From positions 4,749 through 68,748 of the forward strand of contig CAZOKN010000004.1 of NCBI GenBank assembly GCA_964580525.1: 64,000 nt of DNA, read 5' to 3'. This stretch comes from an uncultured Rickettsiaceae bacterium (lineage in GTDB: Bacteria; Pseudomonadota; Alphaproteobacteria; Rickettsiales; UBA6187). Every line of letters begins with the position of its first letter. The first letter of the stretch is position 1. This document shows, one piece after another, positions 48,577 through 50,335 of the stretch. The position numbers and the translations under genes were made by a program. The notes under the pieces are model-generated. The model was not told the origin of the DNA and searched no databases. It saw only the letters and a program-made list of their open reading frames with translations.

Positions 48577-48918
48577 ATGATTTTTAAGAAATGTATTTTT
48601 ATAGTCGGTCTTTGCTTACCTCACCTGGCTGATGCGCAGGTGATAAGTGTAGAAAATAAACTTTATGTTGCAGAAGGAACTTATAATCCTGGCAGGATTT
48701 ATGTTGTGAATCCGCCAAAGATTACGGATAGCGAAAATTTTGAAGAAAATCTTAATTATTTAATATACTATCCGGTTGGTGCGGCAGAATATTATAAGCC
48801 TTATATGGAGATGTATAAGCAAGCACTGGAAAAATATAAAACTGTTGTGGCATTCACTCAGAAGTCTAAGAGCAAGTCAAGCAGGCCTTATTATCCTATT
48901 TACTTCGATGGCGAATAG
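48577..48918 (+). CDS. small exported Tyr-rich protein ending in YPIYFDGE
   Basis: Signal peptide MIFKKCIFIVGLCLPHLADA. No family recognised. Confidence 0.55.
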   Translation: MIFKKCIFIVGLCLPHLADAQVISVENKLYVAEGTYNPGRIYVVNPPKITDSENFEENLNYLIYYPVGAAEYYKPYMEMYKQALEKYKTVVAFTQKSKSKSSRPYYPIYFDGE

Positions 48919-49043
48919 TAAATTTTCTCCCATAATAAAAAAATATTAAAGAAGATCAAGATTAGTCTTTGAATTATAGGGAATTTGTATTATATTGCAC
49001 CGCGGTATAAATTAATCCATATTAGTTAGGTTTCTGGTTTCCG

Positions 49044-49487
49044 ATGAAGAGGTTTGTATTTTCTTCAGTCAATGTTATGTTTTTTGTGGCGCTATTTCTT
49101 TCAGGATGCGTTAGGGAACATTACATGTCGGGTTCTGGCGGCACTGTTGACCAATATAATTCAGGCGAAATGGCAAAAGACTGGAGATCTCAGTTGAAAA
49201 GCGGTGGTGCTCCGAGTTATGACTATCCTCAGGATAATGATAGCGAATACTACGTTCCGAAAAAACCTGTGCCTGGTAGAGTTGTTCAGCCTGCGCCGGC
49301 TCCAACTCCTGCTCCTGTAGTTCCTCAATACACATATCCGAAGGGCTATAAAGAAGATTTAGACTCTGGTTATGATGGTTATGTATATCCTAAATATGAT
49401 CCGGATGCGGATAATGAAGGATATGGCGGAACTATAAGTAAGCAAAGAAAAGTTGATAAGTACGGTTATCCTATTTACTTGGATTAG
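49044..49487 (+). CDS. small Tyr/Pro-rich lipoprotein ending in YPIYLD
   Basis: Lipobox FLSGC. AP-rich linker PAPAPTPAPVVP. Confidence 0.55.
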   Translation: MKRFVFSSVNVMFFVALFLSGCVREHYMSGSGGTVDQYNSGEMAKDWRSQLKSGGAPSYDYPQDNDSEYYVPKKPVPGRVVQPAPAPTPAPVVPQYTYPKGYKEDLDSGYDGYVYPKYDPDADNEGYGGTISKQRKVDKYGYPIYLD

Positions 49488-49489
49488 TC

Positions 49490-50335
49490 ATGATAAACAG
49501 GACTTTGCTTTGTATTTTATTATTATGTTGTCTGGCTGCTTGCCGCAATTCTCCTGTTCAAAAAGATATTCCAGCTAATTATACTGATAGCTCTAAAGCT
49601 GCAGCAGATGATGAATTTCACGAGGCAAATTATAAAAAAGCTGCCGAACTATATGCAAAGTTTGCTGATAAAAACAGTAGTTCTGAAACGCTTTTTAATT
49701 ATGCAGAATCTTTGAGAATTTCAGGCAATATAGCAAAAGCGAAAGATTATTATGATATGGCGATTGCGAAAGAATCTGGAATGCTTGCTGCAATTGAAGG
49801 AAAAAGTCTTTGCTATATACAGGAAGGCAAGTTTAAAGAAGCCCAAAATTTATTGGAAGAGGTTGTATCCAGAGATGCCTCAAGATGGCGGTCGATCAAT
49901 GCTCTGGGTGTTGTTTATGCAATGAATGGCAATCTTAATAAAGCCCTGGAATATTATAATATTGCGTTGGATGTAAGTAAAAATAATCCTGCAGTTTTGA
50001 ATAATATGGCTCTTTCTTTAACATTTAGTGGTGATAAAGAGCGTGGCAAAAAGCTTTTGGAAAAAACTCTTAGCAATCTTGATTTAGCAAAAGATAAAAA
50101 ACAGAAAATTGAATATAATCTCGCGCTTATATATGGAATATCGGGAGATATGGACAAGGCTAAATCGATATTGGCCAAATATTTGCCTGAGGCAGAAGTT
50201 TATAATAATCTTGGTGTTTATGCCAAGATGGCTAAAAATGATGATTTAGCAAAAGAATATCTTAGCAAAGCCCTTTCGAGCAGTCCTGTGTATTATGATA
50301 AAGCAGGAAAAAATCTTGAGACCATTGCAAGATAA
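49490..50335 (+). CDS. TPR-repeat lipoprotein
   Basis: Lipobox LAAC. Repeated A..Y..A/L 34-residue patterns (for example ALEYYNIALDVSKNNPAVLNNMAL). The start lies 2 nt after the preceding stop. Confidence 0.7.
   Translation: MINRTLLCILLLCCLAACRNSPVQKDIPANYTDSSKAAADDEFHEANYKKAAELYAKFADKNSSSETLFNYAESLRISGNIAKAKDYYDMAIAKESGMLAAIEGKSLCYIQEGKFKEAQNLLEEVVSRDASRWRSINALGVVYAMNGNLNKALEYYNIALDVSKNNPAVLNNMALSLTFSGDKERGKKLLEKTLSNLDLAKDKKQKIEYNLALIYGISGDMDKAKSILAKYLPEAEVYNNLGVYAKMAKNDDLAKEYLSKALSSSPVYYDKAGKNLETIAR

Follow-up and report, generated by a model that had tools for sequence, protein, structure and literature searches.

A 64,000-nucleotide stretch of DNA from an uncultured Rickettsiaceae bacterium (contig CAZOKN010000004.1, positions 4,749 to 68,748; hereafter the window) contains three adjacent genes, encoding two small exported proteins, here named P1 and P2, and a lipoprotein built of tetratricopeptide repeats (TPR) that is homologous to TadD, the pilotin of the Tad pilus. 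Our analyses favour, with moderate confidence, a reading in which this TadD-derived TPR lipoprotein docks the free C-terminal tails shared by P1 and P2, in what would be a conserved and previously undescribed envelope module of environmental Rickettsiales. The proposal draws on sequence comparison, structural modelling and analogy with characterized TPR receptors. Both the class of mechanism, in which a TPR groove takes up a C-terminal peptide, and the TadD lineage are already known; what is new here is the detachment from the Tad system, an unannotated family of candidate ligands and the tail motif itself.

Results

Two dissimilar exported proteins with one tail

The initial annotation had described two small exported Tyr-rich proteins, otherwise dissimilar, which share a C-terminal tail and are followed 2 nt further on by a TPR lipoprotein, and this description is borne out by the open reading frames (ORFs), the sequence and the motif statistics (Table 1), the ATG of the TPR gene lying 2 nt past the stop codon of P2. 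P1 carries a Sec-type signal, MIFKKCIFIVGLCLPHLADA followed by Q, with cleavage between ADA and Q, and terminates in RPYYPIYFDGE, the longer end segment reading SSRPYYPIYFDGE. P2, rich in Tyr, Pro and Asp, terminates in VDKYGYPIYLD. Tyr makes up 15.1% of mature P1 and 13.5% of mature P2, against a window average of 2.8%. Compared without the tail, the two proteins showed no significant similarity. A word-index search of 5.8 billion proteins with P1 returned the self-match only, as did a word-index search with P2, and a scan for promoters and terminators around the three genes gave background levels only.

The tail motif, written as YP[ILM][YF][FLM][DEN], is expected by chance at ~4e-7 per residue position and ~1e-6 per protein end, and across the six frames of the 64 kb P1 and P2 are the sole ORFs that carry it at their C-terminus; a chance origin of the shared tail in the window can be excluded. 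At the DNA level, the 15-mer TTATCCTATTTACTT is found exactly twice in the window, at 48891-48905 and 49466-49480. The two exact copies and the first coordinate had been correctly reported, while the second copy had been placed one nucleotide off. Given the same amino acids and the codon usage of the window, identical codons for Y-P-I-Y are expected ~7% of the time, and the 15-nt identity alone therefore adds little. In three other loci with paired tails (L002, L006 and L009), the synonymous codons of the two tails differ within each genome, which argues that the tail is shared through protein-level selection and not through gene conversion. Of the two origins first entertained, constraint thus stands, and gene conversion is disfavoured by this comparison.

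Conservation of the tail across genomes

The comparison covered more than 30 loci, drawn from the contigs of orthologs of the TPR protein, one GTDB scan run from 8 sequences and one metagenome scan; all named matches of the GTDB scan were metagenome-assembled genomes labelled Rickettsiales, Rickettsiaceae or Alphaproteobacteria. The tail is carried by 25 distinct proteins from ~20 genomes or metagenome contigs, comprising 17 P2-type lipoproteins and 8 other proteins with signal peptides, so that the expected conservation in orthologs was indeed found. Its general form is YP-x-[YF]-hydrophobic, in most cases with one or two D/E/N residues after it, and it lies at most three residues from the stop codon in 25/25 proteins, a placement suggestive of a function for the free C-terminus. 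While the remainder of the carrier protein diverges, the tail is retained between genomes with only 35-50% identity among their TPR proteins.

A tail gene lies directly upstream of the TPR ortholog in all loci of the tail clade with upstream sequence, amounting to at least 14 independent loci. This upstream gene encodes a small lipoprotein in the window, L002, L004, L005, L006, L009, L012, L015, L017, L018, L026 and L028, with tail variants (each read up to the stop codon) that include YPIYFD, YPLYME, YPLFFDE, YPLYFDD, YPIYFDN, YPLYMD and FPMFYD. In L031 and L034 it encodes a non-lipoprotein with DND repeats, ending in FYPNYFN or FYPAYMN. No tail was found elsewhere than beside the TPR gene within the ~64 kb and 250 kb examined.

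A second tail protein, with a signal peptide and not a lipoprotein, occurs in six genomes, namely the window (P1), L002, where its gene is downstream on the opposite strand, L006, L009, L015 and L017. Compared without the tail, P2-type proteins are still clearly homologous (E 1e-10 to 1e-21), whereas the second tail proteins show no detectable mutual homology, except those of L002 and L009. It follows that P2 and the TPR protein form the conserved unit, and the tail behaves as a transferable module: P1 is lineage-variable, and the tail is a portable element acquired by other exported proteins. The co-occurrence of the whole trio anticipated by the initial annotation accordingly holds for the P2-type and TPR pair, in the 14 or more independent loci above, but not for P1, which is lineage-specific and non-homologous between genomes. 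Moreover, where a genome has two tails, these are closer to each other than to the tails of other genomes; the true pairing scored best of 720 permutations (p = 0.007-0.014, 6 genomes), as would fit co-evolution with one shared receptor.

The P2 family

An exhaustive HMMER search with P2 against 1.84 billion representatives recovered 10 proteins, all of them small lipoproteins, and all complete relatives among them end in the tail. The family has no Pfam relative, and a profile search of the PDB with it found nothing. Its members follow a common order: the lipidated Cys, LAKDWRxQ, YP-x-DND-[SA]-x-YY-x-P, a second DND-x-x-Y motif, YP-[KR]-Y-[DN]-P-[DE]-x-DN and the tail, with spacers that are variable and Pro-rich. 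Residues P62, D64, N65, D66, Y69 and P72 are invariant in the second conserved motif of P2, and P116, Y118, P120, D123 and N124 in the third. We take the DxDxD spacing of the family to resemble that of Ca2+-binding loops.

The AlphaFold2 model of P2 obtained with the family alignment reached a predicted local distance difference test (pLDDT) score of 57.7 and a predicted template modelling (pTM) score of 0.18, and the sole helix predicted in the mature protein, residues 40-53, coincides with the first motif. P2 is thus modelled as probably intrinsically disordered, as expected for a ligand that presents linear motifs.

The TPR lipoprotein and its kinship with TadD

Pfam recognizes generic TPR repeats only in the TPR protein, for which ~20 orthologs were found at 31-50% identity. 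Its kinship with TadD emerges from pairwise comparison: P0023, a TadD encoded in a complete tad locus beside TadE, TadG, TadB, TadC, TadA, CpaD and the secretin, aligns with it end to end (29% identity over 257 aa, E = 2e-26). Two of the orthologs are labelled TadD in the Joint Genome Institute annotation. The only matches that sit in tad loci are the distant ones in L007 and L033, the latter adjoining TadB and TadC. Pfam scans of the ~40 larger window ORFs revealed no tad or secretin domain, and the gene tables and ORF scans of the flanks of the orphan loci show no tad gene, as far as these flanks extend. A literature search for TadD in Rickettsiales returned nothing relevant.

AlphaFold2 models the protein as an all-helical TPR superhelix (pLDDT 86.9) in which the signal peptide is followed by 15 helices, one of them a C-terminal capping helix. 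In a 21-sequence alignment, R76, D129, N137, N172 and N240 (window numbering) are invariant in the orphan proteins and in genuine TadD; R134 is likewise common to genuine TadD and is replaced by Lys in two loci, and N171, N210 and N239, also common to genuine TadD, each show one substitution among the orthologs. The concave groove of TPR superhelices is lined by their A helices. All the conserved polar residues (R76, E103, R134, N137, N171, N172, N210, N239, N240 and N275) fall on the A (odd-numbered) helices of the model, with R76 on helix 3 and N137 on helix 7, and on the B helices it is Ala, Tyr and Leu residues with a packing role that are conserved. TPR residues tracking the tail variant were searched for, and nothing convincing was found.

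Some members differ from the window protein at their C-terminus or in their surroundings. P0008 (L002 6001-6984), P0012 (L009 6001-6981) and the ortholog at L027 183-923 are among those that bear a C-terminal extension of ~40 aa ending in K-[LY]-P-L-P-[ST]-x-[RK]-P, which is absent from the window TPR protein. The more distant orphan TadD-like lipoproteins of L011, L021-L025 and L032 adjoin pyrB, and the orphan TPR proteins of L022, L024 and L025 end in a conserved extension, DKAGFDxGKGGKR[VI]KVN.

Genomic context of the module

The coordinates of the module are collected in Table 1. The gene murC directly adjoins the P2-TPR pair in nine loci (L002, L004, L006, L009, L012, L016, L018, L020 and L034), often together with murB-ddl-ftsQ-ftsA. 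In the window, the murC cluster lies at 31609-37779 (+), 11-15 kb upstream of the module, with a SIMPL/DUF541 gene between murC and murB. The adjacency to murC may reflect an inherited gene order or may hint at a role in the envelope or in division.

Table 1. Features of the P1-P2-TPR region (window positions)
Feature	Position	Strand	Description and basis
P1	48577..48918	+	113 aa; ORF call; Sec-exported, Tyr-rich, not a lipoprotein; alternative start TTG at 48571
P1 tail, YPIYFD-GE-stop	48892..48918	+	Codon-level reading and motif statistics
P2	49044..49487	+	147-aa predicted lipoprotein; lipobox LSGC, Cys22 at 49107-49109
P2 conserved motif 1, MAKDWRSQ	49170..49193	+	Family consensus LAKDWRxQ; alignments
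P2 conserved motif 2, YPQDNDSEYYVP	49224..49259	+	YP-x-DND-x-x-Y-Y-x-P, DxDxD-type; alignment
P2 conserved motif 3, YPKYDPDADN	49386..49415	+	DxDxDN; alignment
P2 tail, YPIYLD-stop	49467..49487	+	Codon-level reading; Y142 and P143 invariant in the family
TadD-like TPR lipoprotein	49490..50335	+	281 aa; lipobox LAAC, Cys18 at 49541-49543
Gly-rich ORF	50351..50926	-	No signal peptide; convergent with the TPR gene; recurrent neighbour

An ORF rich in Gly (14-26%) and devoid of a signal peptide is found directly 3' of the TPR gene and convergent to it in 11 loci, the window included, with copies at L006 6904-7365, L012 8851-9345, L015 3909-4433, L017 8949-9296, L027 984-1622 and L031 6734-7102, among others. 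Homology was shown only between the window and L012 (55% identity over 96 aa), the other loci having the same composition and position, and the ORF may represent a fourth conserved neighbour of the module. Neither the window copy nor P1 and P2 match any Pfam or NCBIfam model. On its right side, the window shares synteny with the closest named relative, L012, through the TPR gene, the Gly-rich ORF, a histidine kinase, an unknown 488-aa protein and virB4.

The window contains Rickettsia-type virB4 and virB6 genes, and genes of a type IV secretion system (T4SS) lie near the module only in the window and L012. The Rickettsiales-type T4SS segment extends over 54550-59855 (+): a 131-aa ORF without a Pfam match occupies the virB3 position, virB4 is at 55079-57484 (PRK13898, E = 5e-196), and after it 57477-59855 encodes a 792-aa protein with a C-terminal Gly_rich_2 domain. 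The 488-aa protein, at 52961-54427, is also found beside virB4 in L012 (45% identity). The module is further flanked by a class A penicillin-binding protein (transglycosylase and transpeptidase) and two HisKA histidine kinases, at 40784-42943, 43341-45062 and 51012-52859, all on the minus strand, the dCache kinase at 51012-52859 being syntenic with kinases in L006 and L012. Just upstream of P1, 46806-47378 (+) and 47415-48317 (+) are adjacent paralogs (28% identity over 124 aa, E = 9e-11) that belong to no Pfam or NCBIfam family and could be lineage-specific effector-like proteins. A 6S RNA (RF00013) was identified at 413-569 (-), with 49.8 bits, above the gathering score, and no tRNA gene was found in the whole 64 kb.

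Discussion

A candidate docking module and its precedents

According to the reading we favour, the TPR protein would be an outer-membrane-type lipoprotein descended from the pilotin TadD and detached from any tad locus, whose concave groove would bind the free C-terminal tail of P2, encoded just upstream, and of any further exported protein that gained the tail, P1 in this genome. The tail would then act as a portable short linear motif. The groove would be lined by the conserved Asn pairs and by basic residues (the invariant R76, and R134 or the Lys that replaces it in two loci); the extended peptide backbone would form hydrogen bonds with the Asn residues, the aromatic residues of the tail would sit in a hydrophobic pocket, and the terminal acidic side chain and the carboxylate would be held by a clamp of basic residues. 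Disordered, Tyr-rich proteins with DxDxD motifs would thereby be gathered in a lipoprotein-anchored complex on the periplasmic side of the envelope, and because the adjacency to murC recurs, the downstream role of this complex is likely envelope-related.

The closest precedent is TadD itself. In Pseudomonas aeruginosa, cryo-electron microscopy, truncation and cross-linking showed that TadD (PDB 8ODN) binds the last 4-5 residues of the secretin RcpA (412-416, ending L414-S415-D416-COOH) in a positively charged central groove made of helices 3, 5, 7, 9 and 11, in which R79 touches the terminal Asp and D139, an Asn in other TadDs, touches the peptide backbone (Tassinari et al. 2023, PMC10499894). 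The window protein is likewise a TPR lipoprotein and a full-length homolog of the TadD of a genuine tad locus, with which it shares Arg and Asn residues on its A helices, and the RcpA ligand is the extreme C-terminus of a disordered segment, of the form hydrophobic-x-acidic-COOH. The secretin of the tad locus in L007 ends in GFQVE, again a hydrophobic and then an acidic residue. The two systems differ in that no secretin or tad gene accompanies the module in the window ORFs scanned or in the orphan flanks, that the candidate ligands are small Tyr-rich exported proteins rather than a secretin, that the model has ~15 helices instead of the 11 of TadD, and that the tail is a longer aromatic YP-x-Y motif.

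A second parallel is offered by kinesin light chain 1 (KLC1), whose TPR domain binds the DIYLE-COOH end of JIP1 via Asn pairs and an Arg/Lys clamp dependent on the free carboxylate (PDB 6FUZ/6FV0), and which tolerates one extra terminal acidic residue, as in TorsinA (Pernigo et al. 2018, PMC6214655). The end of JIP1 compares with the PIYLD-COOH of P2, tails with one or two acidic residues (YPIYLD, YPLFFDE) parallel the tolerated extra acid, and in both cases unrelated proteins, cargo in that of KLC1, have only the tail in common. KLC1 is, however, a eukaryotic cytosolic motor adaptor, and the analogy is one of convergent mechanism, implying no evolutionary kinship.

The initial annotation had invoked the EEVD tails of Hsp70 and Hsp90. 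The carboxylate-clamp domains of Hop and CHIP do resemble the proposed module in that a TPR groove recognizes a short C-terminal peptide with a free carboxylate, but they are three-repeat cytosolic domains with an all-acidic ligand and no specific sequence relationship to the window protein; TadD-RcpA and the Y-acidic motif of KLC1 provide better precedents. Overall, the hypothesis of the initial annotation is partly supported, the refuting conditions examined here having come out in its favour. NlpI and LbcA, TPR lipoproteins of the outer membrane that act in a cell-wall context, use disordered segments to recruit their partners; the context recalls the murC neighbourhood described above. They differ in that the NCBIfam NlpI score of the window protein is far under the cut-off (NF008391, 19.2 bits against 250) and that no protease or hydrolase partner was seen here, and NlpI recognizes internal or N-terminal disordered regions, not a C-terminal tail. 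The features of TPR receptors for C-terminal linear motifs (TadD, KLC1 with Y-acidic, Hop with EEVD, PEX5 with peroxisomal targeting signal 1) are found here as well: an end-fixed motif in otherwise unrelated proteins, and conserved Asn and Arg/Lys residues on the A helices.

Several observations weigh against docking by the TPR groove. In one subclade, formed by L016 and L020, the lipoprotein upstream of the TPR gene (L016 3522-3911, L020 7566-7931) ends differently: its tail, DLLYAY, is aromatic and lacks an acidic residue at the end. Both proteins retain the N-terminal, LAKDWR-like [LM]xxxWR motif and a YYYDPxVDNPQ motif. The orphan TPR proteins of L010, L011, L021-25 and L032 keep the same groove residues with no adjacent tail gene, so a different or a further ligand may use the groove. 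Foldseek searches with the TPR model returned generic TPR proteins only, not TadD specifically, and the equivalence of R76 with R79 of P. aeruginosa, and of N137 with D139, is inferred from spacing and helix order in the model rather than from an alignment. The test of tail co-variation covers only six genomes, some of them related. Finally, both partners are lipoproteins, so the benefit of docking one to the other is hard to see.

Alternative explanations

Two other explanations leave the tail a function but take its recognition away from the TPR protein. In the first, which we regard as unlikely, the tail would be the last unit of a self-acting YP/Tyr-acidic array (YP-x-DND, YP-x-Y-D-P-D, YP-x-Y-x-D) that serves, for example, to bind Ca2+, to self-associate or to attach the protein to peptidoglycan or the outer membrane. 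P2-family proteins do hold two or three internal YP-initial motifs of DxDxD type that resemble the tail, and in the proteins L006A and L017A such motifs form arrays of up to five. The terminal motif is nevertheless unlike the internal ones, having hydrophobic residues in place of DND; it keeps within three residues of the stop codon in every one of the 25 proteins; window P1 has the tail but no clear DND repeat; and the constant TPR neighbour would be left unexplained.

It is likewise improbable that the tail is read by another envelope machine, with the TPR lipoprotein as a co-functioning neighbour or adaptor. The candidates would be a C-terminal processing protease of the Prc/CtpA type with an NlpI- or LbcA-like TPR adaptor, a sorting or surface-exposure pathway, or the beta-barrel assembly machinery (BAM). 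Placement at the C-terminus is a hallmark of sorting signals and of tail-specific protease signals, TPR lipoproteins such as NlpI serve as adaptors and not as tail receptors, and orphan TPR homologs exist with no tail gene beside them. Yet a Pfam scan of the ~40 larger window ORFs and the gene tables available for related loci revealed no gene for an S41 protease, nor a sortase-like or Slam-type one. The tails mostly end in acidic residues, whereas Prc-type proteases favour non-polar termini and the last residue of BAM beta-signals is aromatic, and P1 and P2 are too small and too disordered for barrels. The tight and exclusive linkage to the TPR gene, together with the TadD precedent, favours direct recognition.

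The remaining explanation, that recent gene conversion or duplication between adjacent genes, or chance, produced a shared tail with no function of its own, could appeal to the same 15-mer at both window tails, and is effectively refuted by ortholog comparison, given the rarity of the motif at protein ends (~1e-6), its retention where the TPR proteins are only 35-50% identical, the different synonymous codons of the paired tails in L002, L006 and L009, and the ~7% expectation of 15-mer identity under codon bias.

Other candidates for the nature of the tail or of the TPR protein were tried and rejected. A BAM beta-signal was set aside since most tails end in D/E, disorder is predicted for P2 and neither BamD nor YfiO is among the Pfam and NCBIfam matches of the TPR protein; a C-terminal T4SS signal, since the proteins bear Sec or lipoprotein signals and T4SS genes accompany the module in the window and L012 only; and sorting of the PEP-CTERM type, since no transmembrane segment follows the motif. 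The low NF008391 score speaks against an NlpI-type adaptor, as does the lack of an S41 protease or NlpC/P60 hydrolase among the scanned neighbours.

Conclusions

Our results define a small unannotated family, the P2-type lipoproteins, with no Pfam, NCBIfam or PDB relative, together with a portable C-terminal motif for which one specific receptor is predicted. Because the module is found next to cell-wall synthesis genes, in Rickettsiales lineages that are poorly understood, it may point to an unknown envelope function. A more far-reaching scenario, which we consider speculative and rather doubtful, is that a Tad-pilus pilotin was repurposed in deep-branching or environmental Rickettsiales as the hub of a new envelope module that captures, through its groove for C-terminal peptides, disordered Tyr-rich, DxDxD (possibly Ca2+-binding) lipoproteins and soluble periplasmic proteins, its ancient murC/dcw linkage reflecting a role in cell-wall growth, division or outer-membrane-to-wall tethering. 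Such a role, if true, would make the module a functional analogue of Lpo, NlpI or CpoB; to our knowledge, factors of these kinds have not been described in this lineage. Should docking of the tail by the TPR groove hold, it would extend TadD-style tail recognition beyond secretins and pili, and would provide a clean bacterial case of a TPR-recognized Y-acidic C-terminal linear motif paralleling that of kinesin light chain.

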